This document shows, piece by piece, positions 1,834 through 25,404 of a DNA stretch of 32,049 bases. The DNA comes from Bacteroidota bacterium. Lineage in GTDB: Bacteria; Bacteroidota; Bacteroidia; J057. The translations under genes were made by a program, and so were the position numbers. Each line of letters opens with the position of its first letter. Position 1 is the stretch's first letter. The notes under the pieces are model-generated. The model saw only the letters and a list, made by a program, of their open reading frames with translations. It was not told the DNA's origin and did no database searches. Location: positions 1-32,049 of the forward strand of contig JBCBKZ010000001.1 of the NCBI GenBank assembly GCA_038520955.1, in the 5' to 3' direction.

Positions 1834-2397
1834 ATGAAATACCTCATCGTCGGATTAGGAAATATAGGAGAGCAGTATAGAGATACTCGCCATAATATCG
1901 GCTTTATGGTGATAGAGAAGATATTGGCGGAGAAAGAGACCAAGGTAGAGCTGGTGAGACATGCTTATAAGGCTACCGTCAAGCATAAAGGCCGTCAGTT
2001 GGTCCTCATCATGCCTACTACCTTCATGAACCTTAGCGGAAAAGCCGTTCGCCACCACATGAAGGAAGAAAAGCTCACCTCTGACAAGGTCCTCATCATC
2101 ACAGATGACCTGGCACTCCCTTTCGGGAGACTGAAGCTCAGACCTAAAGGATCTGCAGGTGGACATAACGGACTCAAGGACATAGAAGAAAAGCTCAACA
2201 CCAGAGAGTACCCTCGCCTCCGCATAGGCATAGACGACAATTACTCCAAAGGCCGACAAGTAGATTATGTCCTTTCTCCCTTCACAGAGGACGAAATGGC
2301 CGGCATAGATGAAGTAATAGACCGTTCCGTAAAAGGAGTCTATGCCTTTGCCACCATCGGCATAGACAAAGCCATGAATGAGGTGAACAAAAAGTGA
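1834..2397 (+). CDS. pth: Peptidyl-tRNA hydrolase
   Basis: 187 aa. Contains LIVGLGNIGxxYxxTRHNIGF, the MNLSG motif and GGHNGLKDI, which are canonical Pth signatures. Confidence 0.95.
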   Translation: MKYLIVGLGNIGEQYRDTRHNIGFMVIEKILAEKETKVELVRHAYKATVKHKGRQLVLIMPTTFMNLSGKAVRHHMKEEKLTSDKVLIITDDLALPFGRLKLRPKGSAGGHNGLKDIEEKLNTREYPRLRIGIDDNYSKGRQVDYVLSPFTEDEMAGIDEVIDRSVKGVYAFATIGIDKAMNEVNKK

Positions 2398-2440
2398 TCA
2401 ATAGCCCTGGAGTTAATCCCCAGAACTATTGGTTTGATCA

Positions 2441-2725
2441 TGTAGCGAAAAATCTTTCGCCTATGCTATCATCCTAAGGGTAGGCATGCCTTGTCGCAAC
2501 CCACTCCTAAAATAAGCCCATAGGGCTGGAACCTCCGTAGAAAAAATATGATGCCATAATAGAGCCCGGTACGGGCGACACCTATAGCTTTCGCCTCTAT
2601 GAGGCTTGATTACCGCATTTGTGTACCTACAAATTTCTCGCTCCTCTGGAGCTGAGGGGTATTATATTCTGGAATGGGGGATTTCTGGAGGAACTGTTTA
2701 GAGACGTGATGCATCTCGTCTCTAC
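2441..2725. repeat. Multi-hairpin intergenic repeat module, copy A (REP/BIME- or MITE-like)
   Basis: A chain of short palindromes: gcgaaaaatctttcgc, agcccatagggct, gcccggtacgggc, gctcctctggagc. It ends in a 26-bp imperfect palindrome, tagagacgtgatgcatctcgtctcta (2699-2724). It is collinear with 3761-4091. Confidence 0.75.
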
Positions 2726-2743
2726 ATTCAAATCCTACGACAG

Positions 2744-3223
2744 TTAAAACAGTCCATTGTTGTTAGCCTTTTTCCCGCCAGCCAGCAACGCAAATAACTT
2801 CATAGAACCATCTATAGGCTGAAGGGCATCCCAGTGCTCCACAATCTGACCATCCACAACTCTCCATATATCCACGATATTGAGCCCTTTATCAGGGTTT
2901 CCGAGATGCGCTTTTTTGATGGTAGCGTGAGAATGAAAAGTTACAAAATCTCCATCAGCGTAAATATGTTTCACATCATATGAGAATTCCGGGAATTTTT
3001 TGGCAAAGCCTTCCATGTAGGTGAGTATTCCTTCCATTCGGTCAGGAATACTTCGGTTATGTTGGACATAATCACTATGCCCATAGGTATTCCGGACATA
3101 GGTAAAATCGTGATCATTCATCAGGTTTTGGACAAAGTCCGTAATCAAGGCAACATTCTTAACCTCCTGCTCTGACCAATTACTTTTGGTTAATGTATTG
3201 GATGGAATGGTGAGTGTACTCAT
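2744..3223 (-). CDS. SnoaL-like / NTF2-fold protein (predicted ester cyclase family)
   Basis: 159 aa. Size and pattern (YxxxxYxQHN ... DGDxVxxH ... DIxRVxDGxIVEHWD) are typical of SnoaL-like cyclase-fold proteins. It is divergently paired with an HxlR regulator. Confidence 0.75.
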   Translation of the reverse strand: MSTLTIPSNTLTKSNWSEQEVKNVALITDFVQNLMNDHDFTYVRNTYGHSDYVQHNRSIPDRMEGILTYMEGFAKKFPEFSYDVKHIYADGDFVTFHSHATIKKAHLGNPDKGLNIVDIWRVVDGQIVEHWDALQPIDGSMKLFALLAGGKKANNNGLF

Positions 3224-3284
3224 AACTTATTTTGTTTATGTAATTGAGAATGTAGTTGGATCGATTTTCATAAATAATACTAAC

Positions 3285-3333
3285 TTGCAAAATGCAATTG
3301 AGCACAATTTATGAACTCAATTGCAAAATGCAA
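3285..3333. promoter_or_regulatory. Two identical 13-bp palindromes TTGCAAAATGCAA (3285-3297, 3321-3333), a candidate HxlR operator pair
   Basis: Two exact copies with starts 36 bp apart lie in the 118-bp divergent intergenic region. The second ends 8 nt before the HxlR ATG. TTGCA/TGCAA are inverted half-sites. Confidence 0.45.
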
Positions 3334-3341
3334 GTGAGTAA

Positions 3342-3746
3342 ATGAAAAAAATTAATATGCGTTCGGATTGTCCGGTGAGTTACGCCCTGGATTTCTTTGG
3401 GGACAAGTGGACATTCCTGGTGATTAGGGACCTCATCTTTGAAGACAAAAGGTTTTTCAAGGACTTCCTGAAGTCCAAGGAGAAAATCGCCAGCAACATT
3501 CTCTCAGACCGACTAAAACGCTTGGAAAGTATAGGCGTCATAGAATCCAAAGTGTTTGAACAGCTCAAAACCCAGAAGGAATATTCTCTCACCCAAAAGG
3601 GAAAGGACCTGGTCCCCGTTTTGATAGAAATGATGCTTTGGTCAGCTAAGCACCATGACGGCCTGGCCCTCACCCCAGAATTCATCCATAAAGCCACCAC
3701 AGATCGGGAGACAGTCATAGCTAACATCATGGCACGCTTAGGCTGA
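3342..3746 (+). CDS. HxlR-family winged-helix transcriptional regulator
   Basis: 134 aa. The CPVxxALDxxGDKWTxLVIRDL start and LSDRLKxLExxGVI recognition region are typical of the HxlR/DUF24 family. Confidence 0.88.
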   Translation: MKKINMRSDCPVSYALDFFGDKWTFLVIRDLIFEDKRFFKDFLKSKEKIASNILSDRLKRLESIGVIESKVFEQLKTQKEYSLTQKGKDLVPVLIEMMLWSAKHHDGLALTPEFIHKATTDRETVIANIMARLG

Positions 3747-3760
3747 TCCCATCTATTCAA

Positions 3761-4351
3761 AGTAGTGGCGAAAAATATTTCGCCTTAGCTTCTATATGGC
3801 CAGAAAGGAATCCCATTTACAGGGGATGTTGCCAGTGTGAAGAGGCTAACCAAGGCATACCTTGTCCCAACCCACTCCAAAAAATAAGCCCATAGGGTTG
3901 TCATCTTCGTAGATAAAAAGCTGCTATCAGATAGCCCGGTACGGGCGGCATATTTAGGTTCCGCCTCTATGAGGCTTGATTATTACATCTGTATATCTAC
4001 AAATGTCTCGCTCCTATGGAGCTGTGTATTCTATTCTGTAAATGTGGATTTAGAAGGAACGGTGTAGAGACGCGATGCATCGCGCCTCTACCTAGCATGC
4101 ATAAATCCGTTTTCGGCTATGCAGTAGCCAAACCTAGCTCATGCCCTGATTTATCATGTATAGCATCTTGTGAATGGCAGGCGGAAGATTTTCCGCCTCT
4201 ACATAACATACATAGAACGTATAAAATCGTTTCCGGCTCTGTAGGAGCCCAAACACACTAGCCCGTCAGGGCATCATATAGCATGGCTCCATAGGAGCCA
4301 AACCTATAGCTGGCTTAGGATGCCTTTTGCAGAAGGTCGATTGTATCGACC
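3761..4351. repeat. Multi-hairpin intergenic repeat module, copy B, plus additional hairpin array
   Basis: 3761-4091 is collinear with 2441-2725. Shared blocks include ccttgtc-caacccactcc, aataagcccataggg, agcccggtacgggcg, cgcctctatgaggcttgatta, ctacaaat-tctcgctcct and gatgcatc. It ends in a 28-bp near-perfect palindrome, gtagagacgcgatgcatcgcgcctctac (4064-4091). 4092-4351 adds more hairpins: ggctatgcagtagcc, ggcggaagattttccgcc (4180-4197), ggctctgtaggagcc, ggctccataggagcc, ggtcgattgtatcgacc (4335-4351). Confidence 0.75.
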
Positions 4352-4470
4352 GTCGAGAGACATACCGCAACCATCCCCAAAATTATATCCAAAAACGGAT
4401 GTTACCTTCTGCCAAAAATATTCATTAACTTGGTAGAAAGCTCCCTAACGTACTTTCTGGAATTACCAAT

Positions 4471-5451
4471 ATGTCTGAAAACGCTTCCGCCCAATCCTCA
4501 AATGGGCTTAACTACATTATAGACCCTGATCTTAAATCTGCTGTAGAAGTAGCGCTGGATTTAGGAATGCCTTTGCTGGTTACTGGAGAACCAGGTACAG
4601 GTAAAACCAAGCTAGCTCGCTATGTAGCAGAAGAAATGCTGGGCACCGACCTGCTTGAGTTTAATACCAAAACTACTTCCAAGGCCAAAGATCTGTTATA
4701 TCGCTATGATGCCTTATCTCACTTTAGAGATACCCAAATAGAAAAGGTAAAGCGCAATCCCATGGAGTACGTAGAGTTTGCTGCTATGGGAAAAGGGATC
4801 ATTGAATCTCCGAGCAAACGCTATGTGGTTTTGGTAGATGAGATTGACAAAGCGCCCAGAGACTTTCCTAATGATGTGCTGTTTGAATTTGATGAGATGG
4901 CCTTTAAGGTGGATGAAGCCAGTATGGAGAATCTAAAAGACTGGCACAGTAAGCATGCAGAATATAAGGAACTGGAAATAGACAAGCAGGGATTCTTCAG
5001 GACTAGTACGGAGATAGCTAAACGGCCTGTACTAATCCTCACCTCTAATTCTGAGAAAAACCTACCGGACGCATTCCTGAGGAGATGTGTCTATTACCAC
5101 ATTAGTTTCCCTCAACCAGAGAAGCTTAAAGAAATCGTACAAGCGAATGTAGACACCAGCGAATCCTTCACAGCGCATATGCTGGGAGCAGCAGTAAAAC
5201 ACTTTTACCAGATTCGTTCTCACAAACTGAAGAAACTACCTGCTACAGCAGAACTCCTTTCATGGATTAAGGTGCTTAAGAAGGCCAATATAGATATCAC
5301 CAAAGCCATGGATGGGGAGGATGATATATTTACCCACTTAAAGAGAGCTAATGTCATCCTCTTCAAAAATAAGGAAGACCTGGAGTGGGCAGATAAAAAC
5401 CTTCAGAAACTTATCACAGATACCATTTCATCTTTAGAGGCAGAATCCTAA
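4471..5451 (+). CDS. MoxR-like AAA+ ATPase (AAA_5-type)
   Basis: 326 aa. Walker A GEPGTGKT (nt 4585-4608), Walker B VVLVDEID (D123/E124 at 4837-4842), sensor-1-like LILTSN and an arginine-rich DAFLRRC segment. It is a single AAA+ module with an insert between Walker B and sensor 1, as in the MoxR/helix-2-insert clade. A 9-nt gap separates it from the next gene. Confidence 0.85.
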   Translation: MSENASAQSSNGLNYIIDPDLKSAVEVALDLGMPLLVTGEPGTGKTKLARYVAEEMLGTDLLEFNTKTTSKAKDLLYRYDALSHFRDTQIEKVKRNPMEYVEFAAMGKGIIESPSKRYVVLVDEIDKAPRDFPNDVLFEFDEMAFKVDEASMENLKDWHSKHAEYKELEIDKQGFFRTSTEIAKRPVLILTSNSEKNLPDAFLRRCVYYHISFPQPEKLKEIVQANVDTSESFTAHMLGAAVKHFYQIRSHKLKKLPATAELLSWIKVLKKANIDITKAMDGEDDIFTHLKRANVILFKNKEDLEWADKNLQKLITDTISSLEAES

Positions 5452-5460
5452 GCTTCTCAT

Positions 5461-7035
5461 ATGCCGAGCCAATACACAGAATTTTTACCCGCTGCTGTGC
5501 TTGCTTTTTCTAATGGAGAAAAGGAAGATGGAACCTATTTGGAGGTGTTGGATGACGAACGAGATGCTATTGGTCGCATCTTTAGGAATTCCAAGCTGAT
5601 CATACGCGAACAGATAGACCGACCTTTAGTGGCAGATATTGCCAGGGCTTTTGATAAGTACCATAGGTATGCGTGTATCTTCCATTATTCGGGTCATGCA
5701 TTTGGGGAAGGCCTCAGCCTGAAAGATGTGGAAGGGAAGGAACGTACAGCCTTTGTGAGTGGAACAGCCAGTCTGGTTAATTTCTACAAGAAGGTGAAAC
5801 TCGTCTTTCTAAATGGCTGCTCTACCCGTAAACAAATCAATTTCTTTCAGGATACGGCTAATCCTCCTGTAGTAATAGCTACCACTCGGCCAGTAAGAGA
5901 TGAAGTAGCTGCCTACTTCTCAGAAGCATTTTATGAAGCCTTTGTCAGTCAGGGACTAAGTGTGCAAGTTTCCTATGAGAAAGCCAAGGGACTACTGGAA
6001 GCCAACTTTGGTGATCCTAAACAGATATATAGGACCCTGATATTTGATAAAAAATCGCTCGAAGAAGACGCTTTTGATCCCTACATCATAGAAAGTAAGG
6101 ATAAAACGCTCTTGCATAAAACCCTCAAGGATTGGAAAGAGGAAATAGGGAGAATGGGAGGGAGCCAATCTCAGGAGATAGCCGAGGACGCCTACCTAAG
6201 CTGTAATCGTTACACCCAATGTCAGGACTTTAAAGAAGCCCTGGAAGAATTGCTGGATACTGAGAAAGCCTATCCTTTGGGCGTCTTCATTCAGGGGCCA
6301 TCAGAGGAAAGAGGCCACAAGCTGATAGAACGCTTTGTATCTCACGAAATTCCAGGCCTGTTAAGTACCCACCCTTCTACTTCGGGAGTGGAGGCAGTAT
6401 GGTTTGAGATAGACTTTCCTAAGGCGGTGGACTTTGAGCGGGAAAGAGAGAAGGGTAAAAGAGCCAGCAGAAAGCCCTTTCAGGGTCCTATGAAGGTGCT
6501 GATGGATAATCTCCGAAAAGAGACGGGCTGTTTTGACGCCACGGACTTATTAGAAGCCCAGGGAAGCCAGAGCCTGATCTGCCTGGAGCATAGGATACAG
6601 TTGCAGAATTGGGAGGCAGACATGAAGGGGTTTATCCAACATTATCTGCAGGAAGTTTGGGCCAATGTGCTTGAGGGTAATTCTCCTGGACTGATCGTAT
6701 TCTTCAATCTCACTTATCTAAAATCTGAAAAAGGCCTTGGGAAATTCCTGCCTATCTTTTCCTCAGAGCATAAAAAAGTGGAAAAGGCTTTCCAGCAAAT
6801 TCAGGAGCAACTATCAGATTCCACCGTAATCCTGGAAAAACTACAAGCGGTCCCTGCAGGAGAAATAGATGACTGGATCTCAGATAAGCTAAGAGATGAA
6901 CCTACCCTTTTTCAGGACAGGTTTAGCAAGCAGAAAAGCTGGAGCATGGCCAAGATCGAGAAAATTCTCACGGAAGTAATCAAAGGGATAAGGCAGCGAG
7001 CCCTCCAGCAGGAGAAAGCTACGGTTCCTGTCTAG
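5461..7035 (+). CDS. Caspase-like (CHAT-type) protease domain fused to a degenerate P-loop/STAND-like module
   Basis: 524 aa. The N-terminal ~200 aa show the CHAT/caspase pattern IFHYSGHA (His79, nt 5695-5697) ... VKLVFLNGCST (Cys120, nt 5818-5820) ... VVIATTRPVRDEVAAYFSEAFY. The C-terminal half has a strand-loop-helix, GVFIQGPSEERGHKLIERFV, where a Walker A would sit but without GK[ST]. A 3-nt gap separates it from the next gene. Confidence 0.65.
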   Translation: MPSQYTEFLPAAVLAFSNGEKEDGTYLEVLDDERDAIGRIFRNSKLIIREQIDRPLVADIARAFDKYHRYACIFHYSGHAFGEGLSLKDVEGKERTAFVSGTASLVNFYKKVKLVFLNGCSTRKQINFFQDTANPPVVIATTRPVRDEVAAYFSEAFYEAFVSQGLSVQVSYEKAKGLLEANFGDPKQIYRTLIFDKKSLEEDAFDPYIIESKDKTLLHKTLKDWKEEIGRMGGSQSQEIAEDAYLSCNRYTQCQDFKEALEELLDTEKAYPLGVFIQGPSEERGHKLIERFVSHEIPGLLSTHPSTSGVEAVWFEIDFPKAVDFEREREKGKRASRKPFQGPMKVLMDNLRKETGCFDATDLLEAQGSQSLICLEHRIQLQNWEADMKGFIQHYLQEVWANVLEGNSPGLIVFFNLTYLKSEKGLGKFLPIFSSEHKKVEKAFQQIQEQLSDSTVILEKLQAVPAGEIDDWISDKLRDEPTLFQDRFSKQKSWSMAKIEKILTEVIKGIRQRALQQEKATVPV

Positions 7036-7038
7036 GCT

Positions 7039-10000
7039 ATGGCAGCAAAGCGTAACATAGACATCCTCTTCTTTGAAGAATTGTTGGAAGAACTCTCCTT
7101 CACAAAAGGAGTGGACACCTATGTACGCATACATAAGCTCCTGGAAAATTGGCAGCCTACAGATGATGCTGAAGAAGACCTAAAAAGACTAAGGGTAAAG
7201 TTGGGGAGTTTACTAGCCAATTCTCCTGAAGAACAACAAGCCTTTTACCAGCGTTTTGACGGCTATGCTTCCCGCTATGCCTATGTCCAGGCTCAGGAAG
7301 CTCCCCCACCACTCCCTACAACTTCTCCTATGTGGAGATGGCTATTTAGCCTGGTGGTGATCAGCCTCATACTGGCAGGTGTATGGCTACTGATTACAGA
7401 TTCTAAGGATACTTTTGTGGAGAGAGGGCTAGCTTTTGATAGCGCAGAACTTTCAAAAACTGTTTGGTTCCAGAATCTGGCAGTTCCTTTTTCCAAAGAA
7501 CCTATCCTCTCCAATAGGATGACAAAGTATACGTGGGACTTTGGAGATGGCTCCCCGGCAGTAGAAACTACGGAAGCTATTATCTCTCATACCTATGAGA
7601 AGCGAGATGCTTATTTTGTGACCGTCATAGCGGAGAGTGTCTATGGAAAGGATACCACCACCAGAAGAGTTCGTGCAGGCTTAGGGGGAGTAATGCTTTC
7701 TAGTCAACAAGATCAGCAAAATCCTTTGGATTGGCAGATGGAGCTCAGTAAAGAGCGTTTCCGTGAAATCAATTCAATGGGTGAGGGGGTAAGTGCTCAA
7801 AAGATTCTCGAAGGAATAGCAGCCGAAGAGCAGAAGCTAAATGAGCAGAGCCGTTACCTAATTGATGGGTTGATTTTGTTTGGAGATGGGGTGCAAGAGC
7901 GCTTTTATCTAGAAGATACAGCTGAAAGAGTCCTGTTCTCCCATAACTATGAGCTTCCTGGTAGGTATGAAGTAGATGTCTATTATTCTTACTATAAGAT
8001 AGATAAAACAACTGGAGTTAGTGAGGAGATATTGCAGGATACTGCCCTTACTACCATACTCATAGAAGGGGATTACTCTTATGAGCCGGTAGGGTTACCT
8101 GAGATTTCTTTTGAAGAAATTAATATTGAAGGCCTACTGAAAGAACAGCAAACAGACTGGCGTCCTGAGCTACTGTTTGCCATAGCATTTTTATTATATG
8201 CTTTTTATGAATGGTGGAAATGGAAAAGTAGGAAGCCGGTATTGGATACCAGCAATGACCTGCATGATCCTGACTGGCAACCCTTACAACTAGACAGGCC
8301 CCAAGTCAACCTCTTTCGTTCAGAGCCCTTCGAGAAGTGGGCGTTAAGCCTTAGGAGGCAAAAGCATACAGAACGGGAAGAATTAGACCTGAATGCTACC
8401 CTAAAAGATACTTTGGAAAAAGGCGGTTTTCCTTCTCTGCTTTTTAAGCCCGGTCAGCAAACCTCTCAATACCTCTTTCTGATAGAATGTTATGGCATTC
8501 ATGACCAGCAAGCTGCTTACTATAGAGAATTGGTAGCAGAACTGGAGCAGCGAGACATTAGTACAGAGGTCTGGTTTTATCATCCTGCCAGGAAGAAACT
8601 GGCTTTTTATAGAGATCCTCAGAAACCAGGAGAAAATACAAGTGCAGATGGACTCAGTAGACTATATGGAAACTACCGACTGGTCATCATAGGAGATGGA
8701 AAAAACTGGGAGAGAGAGGTAGCCAGACTGGAAAGTGTGAAAGACTGGCTGGAAAAGACCTGGATATCTACGCGTCCTCCTGCTCACTGGGACAGAAGAG
8801 AAATAGAACTGGCTAAACACTTTCTCCTCTTTCCGGCTCAGGAAGAAGCCTTTCTTTCTATGGTAGATGTATGGTCAGATGTCCAGGAAGCAAAAGACCT
8901 GGCCATATGGAGAGAGCAGGACAGAACTTATGATCTTCCTGATCTGGAAGACATAGATTCCCTTCCCTTGCTAAAGAGATATTTGGGAAAAGACGCCTTT
9001 CACTGCCTCTGTGCTGCTGCCATTTATCCGGAAATGTATTGGGAACTCTGCCTTGCCTATGCCAATATGTGCGGATTGGTGGAAGGCGGGAGAGTGAAAC
9101 AAGATTTTCTGAAGTTGTTAAATCTTCCCTGGTTTAGAGAAGGCCGGATTCCGGAAGAGTGGAAGGTCCTCCTGATGGAGGAGATCCCTTCGCCTTTACA
9201 GGAAGAGGTGTACAGCTACCTGATTTCAGTCCTGGAACAGCCACAGAATACGGCTGCTAGTCAGCCCGGTGCTCAAAAGCAAAACCGAGCCCTTCTGGCT
9301 GTCTATAAGTACCATGTAGAGAAAGATAAAGATAAAGCGGCCCAAGAACTTAGCGAGACCATCATAGGAGAGGTTTCTCCGGAATACCTTCGAGACATAG
9401 TCTCTGTAAGGACGGTTTCTAAGGTAGGTCGTAAAGATCAACTCATCCCTCTCCCGGGAAGCTTTTATCATTACGGCATTCCTCTTTATGGAGAAAGAGA
9501 TTGGCTAAGATTATTGAAGGTGTTACTGGTCTTACTCCTTCTGCTGGCAGGACGTTTTGGGTTCAGGATACTGAATCCCCTTCAGGTAGAATACGCAGAG
9601 CCTTATCAGGAAGAATATGTACAGCTAACTTCTGCTAATGACTCCGCTAAGTGGATGATGTATCAAGGGAATCAGATGTGGCAGGAAATGATGGATCCAG
9701 ATCCTTATGATGGGGTATATACTGATCCTATAGACTATGAGGCCATAGCCCCTTACTATAAGAAGGCTGTAGAACTGGATCCCGAACTTGGGAGCGCCAT
9801 GAGAAATCTGGTGTTAACTCGCTACCATCAGGCACGGGCAGGATATCTGAATCAGGACCTACAGGCGGCGCTTTCAGCCTTTGGGAATCATGCTGATAGT
9901 ATGGAAATCTCTATTCCTGAATCCTTGGTGAACGAAGTAAGGTTCCTCATGGGCTTGATATGGCTGGAGAATCCTGATCCTGAGGTGATGGGGTTTACAA

Positions 10001-11802
10001 TTCCTGAGGTAGAAACTGGGGAAGGATATTTAAGTTGGCGACTGATAGACAATAGAGAGTATAATTTTGAGGTGAGTGATTCATTGCCTTTCCCTACTGT
10101 TATCCGGCCAAGCTCAACTATCAGGGGCGAGCCAAGCTACAGCATCAATCAGTCCCTTTTATCAACCCTCTCTCTCTACAGCTTGGGTAGAAACTTTTAT
10201 CAGACTGACAGCAGCTTGTTTGGGAGCTTAGCGCTAGAAGATAAGGTCTTGTTTAATAACAAGCGTGAGGCCAATCTCAGAGGACAGTTAGGGGAGAATG
10301 AGTTCCTACTAGACTCATTGGACAACTGGATATATGGCCTGGAAAATAGAGAATCGACCTTACTGGCAGAAGCAGAACGTTTAAGGGCCGAAGGTAGTTG
10401 TGATGAGGCCGTAGGCTTGTACCAGCAGGTACTGATATTAGATCCTGCCAATGTTCAGGCACAAAAGGGACTTGATGCTTGCCAGCCAACAAACAAGCCA
10501 CCTGTTTCCATTGACCTACTGCTTAAGCAAGCTACGCTACTAGCCCGAAAAGGAAATTGTGATTCTGCCTTAGTACTTTATAACCTGGTACTGGCAAAAG
10601 ACGCTAGAAATGCGCTGGCCAAAAAAGGCATACGGAACTGCGAGAGGTCTACCTCGTCAAAAGAAACAAAAACCATTTACCTCAAGGGCTATCTGGGCTG
10701 GGAGATAGAGTCTCGCATACCCGCCATGGGAGCCAATGTATCCGTAGCTGTGGCTGCTAACCCGAATCCTGATATTTCCATAGGTAGGGAAGAAAGAGAA
10801 AGTGGACCCGTAGACCTGCTTGTAGGTAAAACAAATAATCAGGGACGCTTTAGCATTCCCCTTAGGCTCAGCCATGAGAAAGGAAAAAACTATGCTTCAC
10901 ATGAACTGATAGACAATCTGAGCATTACCATTTCTGGCAGAAACCTCCAGCAGCAGCGCTTGGAAATACCTTATGCGGATATAGCCTATAGCGTAAACCT
11001 CAGCCTGAAAGGAGATACCATTTTACTGGATACCGTCCGCATGCGTATTCAAGCAGACGTAGGGGAGTTTGTAGAAGTAGAAGGAGGAACCTTTATGATG
11101 GGAAGTGAGGAAGGTAATGAGAATGAAAAACCTGTTCATGAAGTTACGCTCTCATCATATAGCATACAGAAATATGAAGTTACAGTAGCTCAGTATATGT
11201 ACTATGTGCAGGAAGGGAGGGGATTACTACCCGAATGGTTAATGAAAGATGAACAGGATTATTTATTCAATCCTAAAAATAATGAAGTCTACAAGAGAAT
11301 AGGTAAAAGTCTTTACTCACTGAACTATCCTATCGTGGGTGTGAATCGTACGGATGCTAGGGCTTATGCAACTTGGTGGTCCAATATCAATAAACGAAAA
11401 TATATGCTTCCTACAGAAGCTCAGTGGGAATTTGCCGCGAGAGGAGGAAAAGGTTCTCAAGGTTACATCTATGCAGGTAGTAATCAACAAGATAAAGTAG
11501 GGTGGCATCGTAATAATTCTGGTTTTCAGACTCACCCTGTTGGTCAGAAAAAACCTAATGAACTTGGGCTATATGATATGTCTGGGAATGTATATGAATG
11601 GTGCGAAGATGATTGGCATGACAGTTATTCTGATGCTCCTATTGATGGTTCTGTATGGATAAATCCTTTGAGGAATACGGTTGGAGTGGCTCGTGGGGGA
11701 TCATGGTATAGCTCTGTTAGTTTCAACCGAGTGGCTTATCGAAATGATCTTCCTGTTTCAGCGGATCACGATTATGTCGGTTTTCGCCTATTAACAGATT
11801 AG
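7039..11802 (+). CDS. Giant (1587 aa) three-pass membrane protein: N-terminal helical domain, 2 PKD-like domains, vWA-like domain, TPR-like repeats, beta-sandwich, C-terminal FGE-sulfatase (SUMF1/EgtB/PvdO-type) domain
   Basis: Hydrophobic segments at aa 99-120, 376-396 and 822-843. PKD signature WDFGDG...HTY (W166 at nt 7534), with a second degenerate copy (LFGDG...SHNYELPGRYEVDVY). vWA-like strand-helix pattern YLFLIECYG...VWFYH...RLVIIGDG. TPR-like helices (AVGLYQQVLILDPANVQAQKGL, ALVLYNLVLAKDARNALAKKG). CarboxypepD_reg-like GKTNNQGRFSI. FGE-sulfatase motifs GGTFMMGS, KPVHEVTLSSYSIQKYEVT, LPTEAQWEFAARGG, GLYDMSGNVYEWCEDDW, RGGSW, GFRL. Confidence 0.75.
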   Translation: MAAKRNIDILFFEELLEELSFTKGVDTYVRIHKLLENWQPTDDAEEDLKRLRVKLGSLLANSPEEQQAFYQRFDGYASRYAYVQAQEAPPPLPTTSPMWRWLFSLVVISLILAGVWLLITDSKDTFVERGLAFDSAELSKTVWFQNLAVPFSKEPILSNRMTKYTWDFGDGSPAVETTEAIISHTYEKRDAYFVTVIAESVYGKDTTTRRVRAGLGGVMLSSQQDQQNPLDWQMELSKERFREINSMGEGVSAQKILEGIAAEEQKLNEQSRYLIDGLILFGDGVQERFYLEDTAERVLFSHNYELPGRYEVDVYYSYYKIDKTTGVSEEILQDTALTTILIEGDYSYEPVGLPEISFEEINIEGLLKEQQTDWRPELLFAIAFLLYAFYEWWKWKSRKPVLDTSNDLHDPDWQPLQLDRPQVNLFRSEPFEKWALSLRRQKHTEREELDLNATLKDTLEKGGFPSLLFKPGQQTSQYLFLIECYGIHDQQAAYYRELVAELEQRDISTEVWFYHPARKKLAFYRDPQKPGENTSADGLSRLYGNYRLVIIGDGKNWEREVARLESVKDWLEKTWISTRPPAHWDRREIELAKHFLLFPAQEEAFLSMVDVWSDVQEAKDLAIWREQDRTYDLPDLEDIDSLPLLKRYLGKDAFHCLCAAAIYPEMYWELCLAYANMCGLVEGGRVKQDFLKLLNLPWFREGRIPEEWKVLLMEEIPSPLQEEVYSYLISVLEQPQNTAASQPGAQKQNRALLAVYKYHVEKDKDKAAQELSETIIGEVSPEYLRDIVSVRTVSKVGRKDQLIPLPGSFYHYGIPLYGERDWLRLLKVLLVLLLLLAGRFGFRILNPLQVEYAEPYQEEYVQLTSANDSAKWMMYQGNQMWQEMMDPDPYDGVYTDPIDYEAIAPYYKKAVELDPELGSAMRNLVLTRYHQARAGYLNQDLQAALSAFGNHADSMEISIPESLVNEVRFLMGLIWLENPDPEVMGFTIPEVETGEGYLSWRLIDNREYNFEVSDSLPFPTVIRPSSTIRGEPSYSINQSLLSTLSLYSLGRNFYQTDSSLFGSLALEDKVLFNNKREANLRGQLGENEFLLDSLDNWIYGLENRESTLLAEAERLRAEGSCDEAVGLYQQVLILDPANVQAQKGLDACQPTNKPPVSIDLLLKQATLLARKGNCDSALVLYNLVLAKDARNALAKKGIRNCERSTSSKETKTIYLKGYLGWEIESRIPAMGANVSVAVAANPNPDISIGREERESGPVDLLVGKTNNQGRFSIPLRLSHEKGKNYASHELIDNLSITISGRNLQQQRLEIPYADIAYSVNLSLKGDTILLDTVRMRIQADVGEFVEVEGGTFMMGSEEGNENEKPVHEVTLSSYSIQKYEVTVAQYMYYVQEGRGLLPEWLMKDEQDYLFNPKNNEVYKRIGKSLYSLNYPIVGVNRTDARAYATWWSNINKRKYMLPTEAQWEFAARGGKGSQGYIYAGSNQQDKVGWHRNNSGFQTHPVGQKKPNELGLYDMSGNVYEWCEDDWHDSYSDAPIDGSVWINPLRNTVGVARGGSWYSSVSFNRVAYRNDLPVSADHDYVGFRLLTD

Positions 11803-11909: not shown

Positions 11910-12125
11910 GAAGTCGATGTAATCGACTTCAGGCAAATATATAGTTGTAGAGGCGCGATGATTGATTTTGAAAAAATAAGCGGCCCACTGTAGGGGCGGA
12001 TTTATCCGCCCTTTGAAGCATACGGCAGCTTAAGCAGCCGGTCCATTTTCGACTTTGAGCCCACCATTTGAATGGTGGGAAACAAGGGACGCTTAAATAG
12101 TCAAACCTAATCATCGCGCCTCTAC
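11910..12125. repeat. Hairpin repeat cluster including a 179-bp element bounded by perfect 17-bp terminal inverted repeats (MITE-like)
   Basis: gtagaggcgcgatgatt (11947-11963) is the exact reverse complement of aatcatcgcgcctctac (12109-12125). The interior holds hairpins gggcggat-tt-atccgccc and cccaccatt-tg-aatggtggg. An upstream hairpin is gaagtcgat-gta-atcgacttc (11910-11930). The arms are the same sequence as the palindromes at 4064-4091 and 2699-2724. Confidence 0.75.
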
Positions 12126-13155: not shown

Positions 13156-13884
13156 ATGCCGCATAGACAGAAGCATAGAGGGCAGCAGTCAGAGGACCCC
13201 AAGCTATTTAGCTTGGATTGGCTACCTGTACTCAATGAAGCGGTAACGGACATGTCTTACCTCATGTCCCGAGGCTATTCTCATAGATCTTCTTTAAAAA
13301 TAGTAGGTGATAGATACAAGCTCCATAGAAGACAGCGTCATGCCCTCTACAGGGCCAGTTGTTCTGATCAGTCTCGTACACAGCGGGCTGGGAAATTGAT
13401 GGACGTCTCAGAGCTGAAAAACAAGCAGGTCATCATAGATGGCTATAATTTGCTGATCTCAGTAGAGAGCGCCCTCTCAGGCGGCATCATCATAGACTGT
13501 AGGGATGACACTTTTCGGGATTTGGCGAGTGTTCATTCTACCTACCGTACGGTAGCAGAAACGAGACCTGCCATCAACCTCATAGGAGAGCAATTGGAGT
13601 CCCTATGCATAGCGGGCGCTTACTGGCTCTTGGATGCACCCATCTCTAATAGCGGAAGGCTGAAGCACCTCATGGAAGGCATAGCAGAAGAAAAAGGCTT
13701 TCATTGGCAGATAGAATTAGATAATAGTCCAGATAAACGTATCAAAGAGGAGAAAGAATCCGTAGCTATTACTTCAGACGGGCAGATTTTGGATCATGTA
13801 GATACCTGGACTAATTTGCACCGTCATATCATTGAAGGATTGTCTGAGTCTCAGATCATTCAGTTGAAAGGGATAGGGCAGTAG
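13156..13884 (+). CDS. DUF434-like N-terminal domain fused to a NYN/PIN-like (YacP-type) predicted ribonuclease domain
   Basis: 242 aa. N-terminus is HRGxxxxDxxLF...RGYSxxSSLKIVGDRYxLxxRQRxAL (recalled DUF434 pattern). The C-terminal half starts VIIDGYNLL, like the IDGYN motif of YacP/NYN nucleases. Confidence 0.55.
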   Translation: MPHRQKHRGQQSEDPKLFSLDWLPVLNEAVTDMSYLMSRGYSHRSSLKIVGDRYKLHRRQRHALYRASCSDQSRTQRAGKLMDVSELKNKQVIIDGYNLLISVESALSGGIIIDCRDDTFRDLASVHSTYRTVAETRPAINLIGEQLESLCIAGAYWLLDAPISNSGRLKHLMEGIAEEKGFHWQIELDNSPDKRIKEEKESVAITSDGQILDHVDTWTNLHRHIIEGLSESQIIQLKGIGQ

Positions 13885-20315: not shown

Positions 20316-21254
20316 ATGACAGTTAGGGTAGAAGGCCTCACCAAAATCTATGGGAGTCAGAAGGCGTTGGATGAGCTCTCTTTTTCAGTGGAACCAGGCC
20401 AGATTCTGGGATTTCTCGGACCTAATGGTGCTGGGAAAACCACCACCATGAAGATCATAACGGGTTTTCTTTCTCCATCGGAGGGAAATGTAAGCATAGG
20501 AGAATTAGATCCCGAAACCCAAATGATGGAAATCAGGAAGATCATAGGATACCTTCCTGAGCATAACCCACTCTACCTGGATATGTACGTGAAGGAGTTT
20601 TTAACCTTCATAGGGAGAATTTACAAACTTGGGAGAAAGACCCTGGCCGGAAGAATAGAAGAAGTAATAGAAATGACGGGCCTGGGACTAGAGCAGCACA
20701 AAAAAATCAGTATGCTCTCTAAAGGCTACAGACAGCGAGTGGGGCTGGCGCAGGCACTTATACATGATCCGCAGATATTGATATTGGATGAACCTACTAC
20801 CGGACTAGACCCTAACCAGATAGTAGAAATCAGAAAGCTCATTAAGGAAGTGGGGAAGGACAAGACCGTCATTTTCTCTTCTCATATCCTCTCTGAAGTA
20901 GAAGCCATTTCAGATAGAGTCATCATCATTAACAGAGGGAAGCTGGTAGCAGATGAACCTATAGATCAGCTCAGAACCCGGCTGGATGCAGAGAATAGCC
21001 TTCAGTTTAGGGTAAATAAAGGGGGCTTCTCCCTGAATAACATTCAGCAATCTACCGGTGTCCAAAGGGTAGAGAAATTGGATGATCAGACCTTTGTAGT
21101 CATCTCTTCTTCAGAGGTAGACCTAAGAGAGCAAATCTTTCATGAGTGTGTGTCCCAGTCTTATTATCTGGAGTCTCTTTCTCAGGAGTCATTCAGTCTG
21201 GAAGAGGTATTCCGTCTACTAACCAATTCTGAGGAGGTTCTCAGCACGACTTGA
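20316..21254 (+). CDS. gldA: Gliding-motility-associated ABC transporter ATP-binding subunit
   Basis: 312 aa. Walker A GPNGAGKTT, signature LSKGYRQR and Walker B ILILDEP. The GYLPEHNPLYLDMYVKEFL block closely matches my recollection of Flavobacterium GldA. gldF/gldG lie downstream on the same strand. Confidence 0.8.
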   Translation: MTVRVEGLTKIYGSQKALDELSFSVEPGQILGFLGPNGAGKTTTMKIITGFLSPSEGNVSIGELDPETQMMEIRKIIGYLPEHNPLYLDMYVKEFLTFIGRIYKLGRKTLAGRIEEVIEMTGLGLEQHKKISMLSKGYRQRVGLAQALIHDPQILILDEPTTGLDPNQIVEIRKLIKEVGKDKTVIFSSHILSEVEAISDRVIIINRGKLVADEPIDQLRTRLDAENSLQFRVNKGGFSLNNIQQSTGVQRVEKLDDQTFVVISSSEVDLREQIFHECVSQSYYLESLSQESFSLEEVFRLLTNSEEVLSTT

Positions 21255-21355
21255 TTTGCCAAATACCTAAAATAATTGGTTTATTTGTGTCCTTTAGCTA
21301 ATAAGTACTTCGGATTACCATTAGATTTCCACCAATCCGAAAATTTGGAACGCAT

Positions 21356-22768
21356 ATGGGAAGAACGCTTTTTGAGAAAATCTGGGATGCTCACGTAGTC
21401 AGCCAAATCCCGGATGGGCCCGCCATTCTTTATATAGACAAACACCTGATTCATGAGGTTACCAGTCCTCAGGCCTTTGATGGACTGAGAAAAAGAGGCA
21501 TACCTGTTAGAAGACCAGACAGAATTCTGGCTACAGCAGATCATAATGTGCCTACGCTGAACCAGCATCTTCCCATTAAGGAAGAACTGTCCCGCATACA
21601 GGTAGAAAAACTGACCAAGAATTGTGCAGAGTTTGGGATAGACCTGTACGGTCTCAATCATCCTTATCAGGGGATAGTGCATGTGATTGGACCTGAACTA
21701 GGCGTTACCCAGCCGGGAATGACTATGGTGTGTGGAGACAGCCACACTTCTACCCATGGCGCATTTGGTTCTATCGCTTTTGGGATAGGGACCAGTGAGG
21801 TGGAGCAGGTAATGGCTACTCAGTGTATGCTTCAGCAGAAACCTAAAACCATGAAGATTGACATTCATGGGAAACTGAAGCCAGGAGTAGTGTCTAAAGA
21901 CATCATTCTATATATCATTTCGCAGATTTCTGCTTCAGGAGGTACAGGTTACTTTGTAGAGTATGCAGGGGAAGCCATTCGTAGCCTCAGCATGGAAGCC
22001 AGAATGACCATCTGTAACATGAGCATAGAGATGGGCGCCAGAGGAGGACTGATTGCACCTGATGACATTACCTTTGACTATATGCGTGGAAGAGAGTTTG
22101 CTCCTCAGGGAGCAGATTTTGATAAGGCTGTAGAAGAATGGAAGAAATTGGTATCTGATGAAGATGCTACTTTTGACGAGGTGATCAGTTTTAATGCCGA
22201 GGATATTGAACCTATGATCACCTTCGGAACTAATCCTGGTATGGGCATAGGCATAAGCGCTAGCGTACCCACTACAGCTTCCATAGAATCTGCTTCAGGT
22301 AAGGTAAACTTTGAAAAGGCCCTGACCTATATGGGCGTGGAAGAAGGTAAGCCCCTAAAAGGGAAAAAAATAGATTATGTCTTCATAGGTAGCTGTACCA
22401 ACTCCCGCATAGAAGACCTGAGAATGGTAGCTGATATGGTGAAGGGAAAGAAGAAAGCAGATGGTGTGGAAGTATGGGTAGTACCCGGCTCCAAGCAGGT
22501 AGAAAAGCAAGCTATGGAGGAAGGCATACATGAAGTGCTGACAGCAGCAGGTTTCCAGTTCAGAGGACCTGGATGCTCCGCTTGTCTGGGGATGAATGAA
22601 GATAAGATCCCCGCAGGGAAGTACTGTGTTTCTACTTCTAACAGAAACTTTGAAGGAAGACAAGGTCCCGGTGCACGCACCTTCCTGGCAAGCCCCCTAA
22701 CCGCTGCAGCTTCAGCACTGAGCGGCTACGTAGCAGACGTGAGAGGACTTGATCTTATACCAGCCTAA
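21356..22768 (+). CDS. leuC: 3-isopropylmalate dehydratase large subunit
   Basis: 470 aa. Aconitase-family motifs [26 protein letters not shown] and CSACLGMN (Fe-S cysteines). Confidence 0.96.
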
Positions 22769-22778
22769 TAATTAGCAG

Positions 22779-23366
22779 ATGGAAAAATTCACAAACATAC
22801 ATTCCTCAGCAGTACCTCTGCCACAGGAAAACATAGATACAGACCAGATCATTCCAGCCAGATTTCTCAAAGCCATCACCAGAGAGGGGTTCGGAGAAAA
22901 CCTCTTTAGAGACTGGCGCTTTGATCGTGAAGGGAAGGAAAAAGACTTTGTACTGAATGATGCTACCTACTCAGGAAAGGTCCTGGTAGCAGGTAAAAAT
23001 TTTGGCTGTGGTTCCAGTAGGGAGCATGCTGCCTGGGCCATTTATGACTATGGCTTCAGAGTAGTTATTTCCAGCTTTTTTGCTGACATTTTTAAGAATA
23101 ACGCTCTGAATAACGGATTACTCGTCATACAGACTTCTGAAGAACAGCTTCAGCAACTAATGGACATCATCCAGGAAGATCCAGATACTACCTTTGATGT
23201 GAATCTGGAAGAACAAACAGTCGTGAATGAGGCTAAAGGGATTTCTTTCACCTTTGATATCAACAGCTTTAAAAAACTCTGCCTGCTAAATGGCTATGAC
23301 AATGTAGACTTTCTCAGAAGTAAGACTGATGAGATCAAAGCCTATGAAGCCAGCTACCAGAAATAA
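22779..23366 (+). CDS. leuD: 3-isopropylmalate dehydratase small subunit
   Basis: 195 aa. NIDTDQIIPARFLK and NFGCGSSREHAAWA are canonical LeuD motifs. Confidence 0.95.
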   Translation: MEKFTNIHSSAVPLPQENIDTDQIIPARFLKAITREGFGENLFRDWRFDREGKEKDFVLNDATYSGKVLVAGKNFGCGSSREHAAWAIYDYGFRVVISSFFADIFKNNALNNGLLVIQTSEEQLQQLMDIIQEDPDTTFDVNLEEQTVVNEAKGISFTFDINSFKKLCLLNGYDNVDFLRSKTDEIKAYEASYQK

Positions 23367-23388
23367 GCTTAAGTCTAAGATTAAAGTA

Positions 23389-23510
23389 ATCAATATTCAC
23401 TTATTCAACATTCAAAATTCATTCATTCAATCATTCAGAATTCAATATTCAGTACTCGTCATTCAAAACTCAATCATTCAATCATTCAAAACTCAGTCAT
23501 TCACTCATTA
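23389..23510. repeat. ATTCA-rich dispersed repeat, copy 2 (between leuD and leuB)
   Basis: aatcaatattcacttattcaacattcaaaattcattcattcaatcattcagaattcaatattcagtactcgtcattcaaaactcaatcattcaatcattcaaaactcagtcattcactcatt. Related to 13989-14084. Confidence 0.65.
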
Positions 23511-23529
23511 AATCATCCTAACAAAGCAC

Positions 23530-24618
23530 ATGAGCACCCATCATATAGCCGTATTACCGGGAGACGGAATAGGTCCTGAAGTAGTAAGAGAAGCCCAGAA
23601 AGCCTTAGATGCCATTGCCTCAGCTTCCTCTTTTTCTTTTGAGTATGAAGAAGGACTCATAGGAGCTGCTGCCATAGATGCTACAGGTTCTCCCTTTCCT
23701 GCTGCCACACTTGAACTGCTGGAAAGAAGTGATGCCATTCTCTTCGGTGCCATAGGCGATCCTAAGTATGACAATGATCCTTCCGCTAAGGTGAGACCTG
23801 AGCAGGGACTACTAGCCATGCGTAAGGCCCTGGGCTTATTTGTGAATGTGCGCCCGGTAGCCAGCTATGATTTGCTGAATGATGCTTCTCCCTTGAGGAA
23901 AGAAATTATAGAAGGAGTTGACATAGTGGTTTACCGAGAGTTGACAGGCGGAATCTACTTCGGTAGTCCCAGAGGAAGATCTGAAGATGGACAAATGGCC
24001 TTTGATACCTGTACCTACAGTAGAGAAGAAATTGAAAGAGTGGCAGTAAGAGCTTTTGAAGCGGCGAGGAGAAGAAGAAATAAATTGACCCTGGTAGACA
24101 AGGCCAATGTACTGGCCACTTCCAGGCTGTGGAGAGAAGTCGTAACTGAAATGGCAAGTAGCCAGTTTGCAGACGTGGACTATGATACCATGTTTGTAGA
24201 TAATGCTGCTATGAAGCTCATCCAGAATCCGGGCTTCTTTGATGTCATTCTCACCGGAAACCTATTTGGAGATATATTGTCTGACGCTGCCTCAGTGTTG
24301 GCGGGTTCCTTGGGGATGCTGCCATCAGCTTCTTTGGGGAAGAAGACCAGCTTGTTTGAGCCGGTACACGGTTCCTATCCTCAGGCTACCGGTAAAGGGA
24401 TAGCGAACCCTATGGCGACGATCTTATCTGCGGCTATGCTGCTGGAGGACGGGCTGGGACTAGCTAAGGAAGCTGCCGTTATCCGAAAGGCTGTTTTATC
24501 AGCTATGGAAAACGGATATGTAACAGAAGATATCCAGGGTGGAACCAAGAGTACTACAGAAGTAGGAGATTACGTTGCTTCTTTCATAGAGAAGAACTAT
24601 GCGGTACCTGCTTCGTAA
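23530..24618 (+). CDS. leuB: 3-isopropylmalate dehydrogenase
   Basis: 362 aa. IAVLPGDGIGPEV, RELTGGIYFG and NLFGDILSD are canonical LeuB/IDH-family motifs. Confidence 0.96.
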   Translation: MSTHHIAVLPGDGIGPEVVREAQKALDAIASASSFSFEYEEGLIGAAAIDATGSPFPAATLELLERSDAILFGAIGDPKYDNDPSAKVRPEQGLLAMRKALGLFVNVRPVASYDLLNDASPLRKEIIEGVDIVVYRELTGGIYFGSPRGRSEDGQMAFDTCTYSREEIERVAVRAFEAARRRRNKLTLVDKANVLATSRLWREVVTEMASSQFADVDYDTMFVDNAAMKLIQNPGFFDVILTGNLFGDILSDAASVLAGSLGMLPSASLGKKTSLFEPVHGSYPQATGKGIANPMATILSAAMLLEDGLGLAKEAAVIRKAVLSAMENGYVTEDIQGGTKSTTEVGDYVASFIEKNYAVPAS

Positions 24619-24669
24619 GCATATACATCCCACATCTTCCTGAAAGAAAGCGTTCATAGTACTGACTAC

Positions 24670-25404
24670 ATGCAAAATATCAGCACAATTTTCTCTAAGG
24701 AGATAGCCTCTTTTCTGAATTCTCTGATAGCCTACATAGTAATGGCTGTCTTTCTAATTGGGGTAGGGGTATTCTGCTGGTTATTTGAGTTTAATATACT
24801 GGAGAATGGGTATGCCAGCCTGGATACCCTCTTTGAGTATGCGCCCTTCATGTTTTTGTTCCTGATTCCCGCCATTACCATGCGGGCTTTTTCAGAAGAG
24901 ATTAAGACTGGAACCATAGAACTACTTTCCACCAAGCCCTTAACTGACTGGCAAATCATCCTCGGTAAATACTTAGCCGCTGTTTTTCTGGTATTTCTAT
25001 CCCTACTTCCTACCATTATATATGCGATCACAGTCTACCGCTTGGGAGAGCCTGTGGGGAATATGGATATGGGAGCTACCATAGGCGCATATATAGGGCT
25101 GTTTTTCCTGGGAGCTATTTTTGCCTCCATCGGGCTGTTTACCTCAGCCCTGACAGAAAATCAGATCGTGGCATTCATACTGGGCGTGTTCTGCTGTTTT
25201 GTGTTCTTCCTGGCCTTTGACTTTCTATCAGGCGTAAAGTCTCTGAGTTCAGTGAACGCCTTCTTAATAAGAATAGGCATACTGGAGCATTACCAAAGTA
25301 TCAGCAGAGGAGTGATAGACACGCGGGATGCCCTTTATTTTATCAGCTTTGTCAGCATTACCCTCATCTTAACCTGGCTTGTATTCTTATCCAGAAAAAA
25401 GTAA
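24670..25404 (+). CDS. gldF: Gliding-motility-associated ABC-2 permease
   Basis: 244 aa with about 6 hydrophobic helices. The FLIPAITMRAFSEE..GT.ELL..KP and ENQIVAF blocks match my recollection of GldF. It is followed by gldG, with overlapping TAATG stop/start. Confidence 0.8.
   Translation: MQNISTIFSKEIASFLNSLIAYIVMAVFLIGVGVFCWLFEFNILENGYASLDTLFEYAPFMFLFLIPAITMRAFSEEIKTGTIELLSTKPLTDWQIILGKYLAAVFLVFLSLLPTIIYAITVYRLGEPVGNMDMGATIGAYIGLFFLGAIFASIGLFTSALTENQIVAFILGVFCCFVFFLAFDFLSGVKSLSSVNAFLIRIGILEHYQSISRGVIDTRDALYFISFVSITLILTWLVFLSRKK

Follow-up and report, generated by a model that had tools for sequence, protein, structure and literature searches.

The DNA stretch analyzed here (the window) comprises 32,049 nucleotides of an uncultured Bacteroidota metagenome-assembled genome (MAG; assembly GCA_038520955.1, contig JBCBKZ010000001.1, positions 1 to 32,049), and its second gene of interest, open reading frame 2 (ORF2; 5461..7035, +), encodes a protein of 524 residues in which two unlike domains are joined. 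The N-terminal half of ORF2 is a CHAT/caspase-fold (clan CD) peptidase domain with a conserved His/Cys dyad, while profile searches identify its C-terminal half as an inactive STAND-type (iSTAND) module with eroded Walker A and Walker B motifs. As judged from these domains and from its gene neighbors, ORF2 is a new, divergent example of the computationally defined MoxR-vWA-iSTAND kind (vWA, von Willebrand factor type A), and it probably serves as the third component of such a conflict system, for which a role against invaders or in regulated cell death is predicted.

Domain composition of ORF2

The peptidase domain and the helical linker that follows it comprise residues 1 to 234 of ORF2 (5461..6162, +). 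A preliminary description, made from the sequence alone, had pointed to a caspase-like dyad formed by His79 (codon 5695-5697), located in the FHYSGHA motif at residues 74 to 80, and Cys120 (codon 5818-5820), located in the LVFLNGCST motif at residues 114 to 122; a further segment, beginning VVIATT, spans residues 137 to 161. This dyad is borne out by its conservation among homologs, by a profile match to a protease of known structure and by the predicted fold. The N-terminal domain is common to 31 database homologs, the majority of which carry a precomputed CHAT annotation. Cys120 does not vary among these sequences, and His79 is found in each of the 26 that cover its position. Likewise, every CHAT-bearing member of the full-length family keeps the GHA and LNGC motifs in which the two residues reside. 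Comparison of the family profile with the sequences in the Protein Data Bank (PDB) revealed a match to the CHAT domain of the SAVED-CHAT protease 8tl0 (E=3.9e-22), with the GHA/GHG and NGC/NAC motifs aligned; the profile was needed for this match, as a single-sequence phmmer search with ORF2 against the same sequences found nothing. The aligned His and Cys of 8tl0 are spaced 47 residues apart, which is the spacing of the published catalytic residues H375 and C422, and the alignment and the published residues thus appear to differ by a numbering offset of 20. The H375A/C422A double mutant of SAVED-CHAT is inactive, and the enzyme is activated by assembly into filaments.

The AlphaFold2 (AF2) model of ORF2, calculated from a 59-sequence alignment, has a mean predicted local distance difference test score (pLDDT) of 89.7. 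In this model one strand (residues 71 to 78) directly precedes His79 and another (residues 114 to 118) directly precedes Cys120. A Foldseek search with the model ranked 8tl0 first, with E=3e-10, a probability of 1.0 and a root-mean-square deviation (rmsd) of 2.7-4.2 over ~200 columns, and also retrieved caspase-7 chains with E ~2e-4 and TM(target) values of 0.58-0.65. Taken with the intact dyad, these comparisons suggest that the ORF2 CHAT peptidase is probably active.

The C-terminal half of ORF2 (6163..7035, +) matches the Pfam iSTAND family (PF19995) at residues 246 to 416 (36.0 bits, cut-off 24; E=1.1e-8), in an alignment that runs from position 2 to position 162 of the 163-position profile; there was no Pfam match of ORF2 to NACHT or NB-ARC. 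An exhaustive search with residues 235 to 524 yielded 73 cluster representatives that carry the iSTAND module; most have a length of ~500 residues and contain it in the same place. The 59 aligned full-length members, 54 of which match iSTAND in Pfam, show that the N-terminal slot is exchangeable, as it is filled by CHAT in 41, TIR in 8, trypsin in 5 and a kinase and a cyclase in one each, a range that agrees with the published list of architectures.

The motif content of the module is consistent with its designation as inactive. The family consensus opens with LLCDRxxQxxxF, whose CDRxxQ motif has its counterpart in the SCNRYTQCQDF segment of ORF2, and continues with PxxxxIHGxxxExxxSLxxRF, which contains no GK[ST]. 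In ORF2, the corresponding Walker-A-like element, PLGVFIQGPSEERGHKLIERFV, occupies residues 272 to 293, within a strand-loop-helix (residues 273 to 303) in which QGPSEERGH is found where GxxxxGK[ST] would be expected. Such an element had been placed from about residue 245; the element itself is real, but residue 245 marks the start of the domain. Further along, the strand at residues 371 to 380, which includes SLICLEH (371 to 377), has E376-H377 in place of hhhhD[DE]. Across the family a near-invariant His377 ends this strand (hhhhQH) at the site of the Walker B acid and is followed by W384, Y395, W400 and an hhhFFN motif, the last represented in ORF2 by the IVFFN strand (residues 410 to 419; GLIVFFNL at 410 to 417). 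The Walker A GxxxxGK[ST] and Walker B hhhhD[DE] motifs are missing from ORF2 and from 59/59 family members.

Foldseek matches of the full-length model to double-ring AAA+ proteins had an rmsd of ~24 Å and were uninterpretable for the C-terminal half, and the iSTAND domain was therefore modeled separately. The domain-only AF2 model (pLDDT 92.4, predicted TM score 0.91) contains five core strands that alternate with helices, giving a β-α core resembling that of additional-strand catalytic-E (ASCE) P-loop proteins, followed by a helical tail. All top 50 Foldseek matches of this model are AAA+ proteins, with probabilities of 0.95-1.0 and modest TM(query) values of 0.3-0.44; they include NSF, Cdc6/ORC (1fnn, 1w5s), ClpA/B/C, ATAD2 and the inactive AAA+-like domain of Sir3. 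The model therefore confidently predicts an AAA+/ORC-Cdc6-like P-loop fold. Because no solved STAND protein is among these 50 matches, the more specific STAND ancestry rests on Pfam and on published profile-profile analysis. Collectively, the AAA+ matches and the family-wide loss of both motifs support the preliminary description in its view of the C terminus as a P-loop-like module lacking the Walker A lysine and a clear Walker B, and, together with the PF19995 match, in its view of an inactive STAND-like scaffold. That description had staked its case on clan CD similarity, a conserved dyad and a P-loop fold for the C terminus, and all three were found.

The partner ATPase and the vWA protein

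ORF2 is the middle one of three ORFs packed together on the forward strand (4471..5451, 5461..7035 and 7039..11802). The spacers between them are only 9 and 3 nucleotides, and the three genes therefore form one operon. The first, ORF1 (4471..5451, +), encodes a MoxR-like AAA+ ATPase of 326 residues that is of the AAA_5 or midasin-dynein-MoxR type and whose Walker A (GEPGTGKT) and Walker B (VVLVDEIDK) motifs are both intact. It scores above the Pfam cut-offs for AAA and AAA_5, and AAA_5 is also matched by 21/21 orthologs from related loci, with bpMoxR matched weakly by 1/21. The best solved matches to the ORF1 family profile are the AAA+ domains of midasin (E ~1e-18). ORF1 in addition shares 34% identity (E=6e-44) with the AAA+ gene adjoining P0031, a protein labeled "inactive STAND/CHAT domain" by the Joint Genome Institute (JGI). 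By these profile matches ORF1 fits the dynein/midasin/MoxR branch, short of a strict MoxR assignment, and it is predicted to be the ATP-driven switch or chaperone of the system.

The preliminary description envisaged two proteins, a protease tethered by its scaffold to this ATPase, and missed the third partner, ORF3 (7039..11802, +; 1587 residues), which adjoins ORF2 downstream. The nature of ORF3 was not apparent from direct searches: a Pfam search of the protein itself gave no vWA match, a homology search with its central region alone returned only a near-identical MAG protein, and a profile search with that region against PDB sequences was empty. The vWA assignment was instead tested with a central-region profile drawn from the genes adjoining ORF2 homologs in Bacteroidota, which was compared with 25 PF05762 (VWA_CoxE) proteins. 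To avoid circularity, the profile was rebuilt without the row from one locus (L001), a canonical vWA sequence that could have driven the PF05762 matches. The central region of the ORF3 clade aligned with the PF05762 proteins over 193 columns in hhalign (98.8%, E=6.8e-17), and the N-terminal 80 residues of ORF3 aligned with the CoxE-type N-terminal helical domain (97.9%, E=3.5e-13). On this profile evidence ORF3 is classified as a vWA protein of the CoxE type, and its TM segments would anchor it in the membrane. MoxR ATPases have vWA proteins as their canonical co-chaperones, and it is probably ORF3 that mediates the contact with the ATPase.

The ORF3 protein is elaborate. The CoxE-type N-terminal helical domain (residues ~8-80) is followed by a first transmembrane (TM) segment (residues 95-123), a PKD/Ig region matched by Pfam PKD (residues 140-211 and beyond) and a second TM segment (residues ~377-397) that is weak in ORF3 and clearly hydrophobic in its homologs. 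Next come the CoxE-type vWA domain (residues ~425-618), a conserved helical region (residues ~620-810) and a third TM segment (residues 820-848), all three TM segments having been located by hydropathy. The C-terminal portion contains a TPR matched by Pfam (residues ~1108-1145) and a C-type-lectin-fold domain resembling formylglycine-generating enzyme (FGE) and sulfatase-modifying proteins (FGE-sulfatase-like, FGS; residues 1342-1585, within the segment of residues 1335-1587 at window 11041-11799; PF03781, E=5e-53). The three hydrophobic segments recur in the homologs at six related loci (L002-L005, L009 and L010). The resulting predicted topology has the N-terminal domain and the vWA domain on the cytoplasmic side and the PKD region and the TPR-FGS C terminus on the periplasmic side.

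Two features of these domains bear on function. The metal ion-dependent adhesion site (MIDAS) of the vWA domain, LFLIECYGIHDQ (residues ~478-490; within window 8236-9018), is degenerate, and this is so throughout the Bacteroidota clade, with a consensus of LIE..S..DH compared with LLiD..GSM in the PF05762 proteins. The ORF3 clade retains a later GDG, which aligns with SDAG, and the more distant iSTAND locus L001 retains IDHGGSM. In the FGS domain, both FGE catalytic cysteines are missing: LCHESYC of 5nxl aligns with YSSVSF-N. Because this cysteine pair is missing, the domain would be a binding domain and not an enzyme. Among proteins of solved structure, it comes closest to PvdO (5hha) and to TvpA (2y3c), a target/variable protein of a diversity-generating retroelement (DGR). 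A search of the window for a reverse transcriptase and for the template and variable repeats (TR/VR) of such an element found none.

The linkage of the three genes extends beyond the window. Among 25 Bacteroidota loci that have a full-length CHAT-iSTAND gene, an ORF1-like ATPase is directly adjacent in 20 and an ORF3-like protein in 21, and nearly all of the loci lacking an ATPase or vWA-type neighbor are truncated contigs. Two gene orders occur, ATPase-iSTAND-vWA (the window, L002-L008, L018, L020, L033, L035 and L046) and iSTAND-ATPase-vWA (L001, L009-L011, L013, L022, L025 and L078), and the three-gene linkage has therefore survived rearrangement. The core of the vWA protein is constant between loci, and its C-terminal module varies, FGS being present only in the window and at L002-L004. 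ORF2 itself is 97% identical to a "hypothetical protein" of a Bacteroidota MAG.

The MoxR-vWA-iSTAND system and its possible working

Ternary systems of this composition were defined by Kaur, Burroughs, Iyer & Aravind in 2020 (eLife 9:e52696; PMC7159879) as the combination of a MoxR ATPase with a vWA protein of the CoxE type and a STAND component that is inactive. In that description a 4-helix N-domain characterizes the vWA protein, ~28% of the cases include TM segments, and the C-terminal effectors vary, with FGS the most frequent (~22%). At the N terminus of the iSTAND component there are TIR, DRHyd, caspase-like or trypsin-like domains or else effector-associated domains (EADs), and the systems are enriched in Bacteroidetes (PMC7159879). 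The ternary system was restated in PMC8195603, and the description was repeated and extended with iSTAND2 and the BREX protein BrxB (PMC8195603, PMC12839542). Pfam and the literature alike define the iSTAND family as inactive (PMC7159879, PMC12839542). The operon in the window shares the CoxE-type vWA protein with helical N-domain, TM segments and FGS C terminus, the caspase-like-iSTAND fusion and the Bacteroidota host, and its linked AAA+ ATPase is MoxR-like, short of a strict MoxR assignment. It differs in that a TM-PKD-TM insert splits the CoxE N-domain from the vWA domain, a third TM segment lies ahead of FGS, the MIDAS of the vWA domain is degenerate and the ORF2 CHAT domain falls below the Pfam cut-off. 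Because it matches every listed structural feature that could be tested, the idea of a protease on a dead scaffold with a separate chaperone, which the preliminary description called mechanistically novel, is a published prediction in both architecture and gene context (PMC7159879), and the JGI label on a relative already conveys the domain pairing. The operon thus adds no principle beyond the 2020 prediction. The TM-PKD-TM insert, the MIDAS-less vWA domain and the probable ectodomain location of FGS may be subclade details of some interest.

Comparison with other systems places the two halves of ORF2 in context. SAVED-CHAT, a cA3 (cyclic triadenylate)-activated protease associated with type III-B CRISPR, is the closest relative of solved structure in both structure and sequence, its His/Cys dyad aligns with that of ORF2, and it too fuses a CHAT protease, which is activated by assembly, to a regulatory or oligomerizing module. 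In contrast to ORF2, whose dead STAND module is C terminal and whose partners are MoxR and vWA proteins, SAVED-CHAT has its SAVED cyclic-nucleotide sensor N terminal to CHAT; no cyclase or CRISPR genes accompany the operon here. The MoxR-vWA-VMAP systems share the MoxR-vWA core, the N-terminal range of peptidase, TIR and EAD domains and the FGS domain on the vWA protein, but their third component is VMAP and not iSTAND, and they are found mostly in actinobacteria and cyanobacteria, often linked to DGRs. Like Apaf-1/caspase-9 and bacterial Avs/STAND proteins, ORF2 pairs a STAND-fold platform with a caspase-family protease for which proximity-induced activation is likely. However, the STAND modules of Apaf-1 and Avs have the GK[ST] and D[DE] motifs and are active as NTPases, whereas the module of ORF2 is dead and energy would come from the separate AAA+ ATPase. 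Finally, Esr, a related MoxR-vWA sensing pathway in Actinobacteria, has recently received experimental support as a threat-response cascade (PMC13622651).

In the working that we propose for a conflict system of this kind, the dead iSTAND module would provide an assembly or recognition platform that keeps the CHAT protease inactive. A stimulus would be sensed either by the cytoplasmic iSTAND module, as put forward by Kaur et al., or by the PKD/FGS ectodomains of ORF3, as put forward by Doré et al. The ATP-hydrolyzing MoxR protein, acting via its vWA co-chaperone, would then remodel the complex past a threshold, such that the CHAT domains are drawn together and switched on, as oligomerization does for SAVED-CHAT and caspases. 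The protease would cut either the linker of the vWA protein, freeing or altering its C-terminal modules, or other cellular substrates, and the infected cell would arrest growth or die. The activating step is most likely assembly-induced CHAT activation on the iSTAND platform, by analogy with apoptosomes as well as with SAVED-CHAT filaments. Ternary systems built on MoxR-vWA are widespread and have a predicted role in immunity or cell death, and their logic parallels that of the animal apoptosome in combining a STAND platform with a caspase. The present operon, which is compact and joins an intact dyad and an intact partner ATPase to an NTPase module that is clearly dead, would be a sensible choice for reconstituting such a system for the first time.

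Several points weigh against assigning ORF2 to a conflict system of the published type. The preliminary description had proposed a check against Pfam profiles, and this gave the expected result for iSTAND but not for CHAT (PF12770), where ORF2 itself, at 15.4 bits (E=0.013), stays below the cut-off of 24. CHAT is matched by the 41 of 59 full-length family members noted above with E values down to 4.6e-16, and, given these relatives and the 8tl0 profile match, the low score can be attributed to divergence of this sequence and not to an absence of homology. ORF1, taken in the same description for an active neighboring MoxR ATPase, is an AAA+ protein with intact Walker motifs, but it fits AAA_5/midasin and is not matched by the strict MoxR Pfam model AAA_3. 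With the MIDAS degenerate clade-wide, classic metal-dependent ligand binding by the vWA domain may not apply. The predicted extracytoplasmic location of FGS fits poorly with a cytoplasmic protease that releases FGS as an intracellular effector. The genes that flank the operon (prs, pth, leuCDB-like genes, EF-G and an ABC transporter) are housekeeping genes, not a defense island, and no PADLOC model matches ORF2 or ORF3. Lastly, our literature search found no experiments on iSTAND systems; the proposals on defense, substrate, sensor and the sequence of events all derive from comparative genomics.

The direction in which information flows is the point on which the published models differ. Kaur et al. 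ascribe sensing of the invader to the third component and the threshold to MoxR-vWA, with the vWA protein or its effectors as the substrates that the peptidase processes (PMC7159879, PMC8195603, PMC10907252). For VMAP systems, Doré et al. proposed in 2024 that sensing is the task of a lectin-fold domain carried by the vWA protein and that the peptidase is the effector (PMC10907252). The predicted outside location of the noncatalytic FGS domain would favor the latter direction for this clade. Applied to the window, the same components would operate in reverse: the PKD and FGS domains of ORF3 would sense an antigen and signal through the cytoplasmic vWA domain to MoxR and on to iSTAND, with CHAT as a terminal effector that degrades cellular proteins. 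This arrangement is consistent with the three conserved hydrophobic segments, which put PKD and FGS on the side opposite the N-terminal and vWA domains, with a cysteine-less FGS whose nearest relatives, PvdO and TvpA, are binding proteins, with a C-terminal module that varies among relatives while the core stays constant and with its prior proposal for VMAP systems (PMC10907252). It is set back by the lack, in the window, of a DGR, reverse transcriptase or TR/VR repeat with which FGS could be diversified, by the weak hydrophobicity of the second TM segment, which leaves the topology a prediction, and by the assignment of sensing to the third component by Kaur et al. (PMC7159879, PMC8195603). 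We consider this reversed flow a tentative possibility.

A more specific form of it, which we regard as doubtful, is a transmembrane ternary system in which the ectodomains sense an outside cue and the MIDAS-less vWA domain and MoxR relay it to the caspase-like protease on its dead STAND platform. The cue, extracellular or periplasmic, may be phage adsorption, an epibiont or a glycan. If true, this would amount to an outside-in, receptor-coupled bacterial caspase pathway, analogous to death-receptor signaling.

It is also conceivable that the operon has no part in immunity, and that the MoxR-vWA chaperone pair serves in the maturation or quality control of an envelope protein, CHAT being the processing enzyme, in parallel to maturation by CoxD/CoxE and RavA/ViaA and to the FGE-like lipoproteins GldJ/GldK/PorK, which belong to gliding motility and the type IX secretion system (T9SS) in Bacteroidota. 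The ORF3 FGS domain does match the GldK/PorK models (NCBIfam E=7.8e-26) and PorK structures, the surroundings are of housekeeping type and include an ABC transporter set with ABC_transp_aux, a similar set lies near the operon at L002, and PADLOC found nothing. However, the NCBIfam matches of ORF3 to GldK, GldJ and PvdO all lie far below the family cut-offs, and we judge such a housekeeping role improbable. Least credible of all is a cryptically active iSTAND NTPase that uses noncanonical residues (G279, E283 and H377) so that ORF2 gates its own protease with MoxR as an accessory: G279, H377 and W384, as well as R250 in the CDR motif upstream, are nearly invariant at the former nucleotide site, which points to selection on that surface, but the Walker A Lys/Ser/Thr and Walker B acid are present in 0/59 members, the family is classed as inactive both in Pfam and in the literature, and ligand or partner binding would explain the conservation equally well.

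Surroundings of the operon

ORF2 has no NCBIfam match. Upstream of ORF1 lies an intergenic gap of ~720 nucleotides (window 3747-4470) without a notable ORF or Rfam match, which presumably holds the operon promoter, of Bacteroidota type. A promoter and terminator scan gave counts no higher than expected from shuffled sequence, Bacteroidota promoters being outside the coverage of the scan, and a search for structured RNAs around the operon found none.

The ABC transporter set (ABC_tran, an ABC-2 membrane protein and ABC_transp_aux/DUF7088) is located at window 20316-27101 and, at the homologous locus L002, at 2357-5570. In both cases it is roughly 5-9 kb from the operon, which suggests partial synteny of the two genomes and not a functional link. 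A gene for a DUF434 and DUF5616 protein (13156-13884; E=8e-48) lies ~1.3 kb 3' of the operon and has no evident connection to it. Closer to the end of ORF3, the downstream intergenic region contains an inverted repeat (11947-11986 and 12086-12125) with 40-nucleotide arms that are 80% complementary and 99 nucleotides apart.

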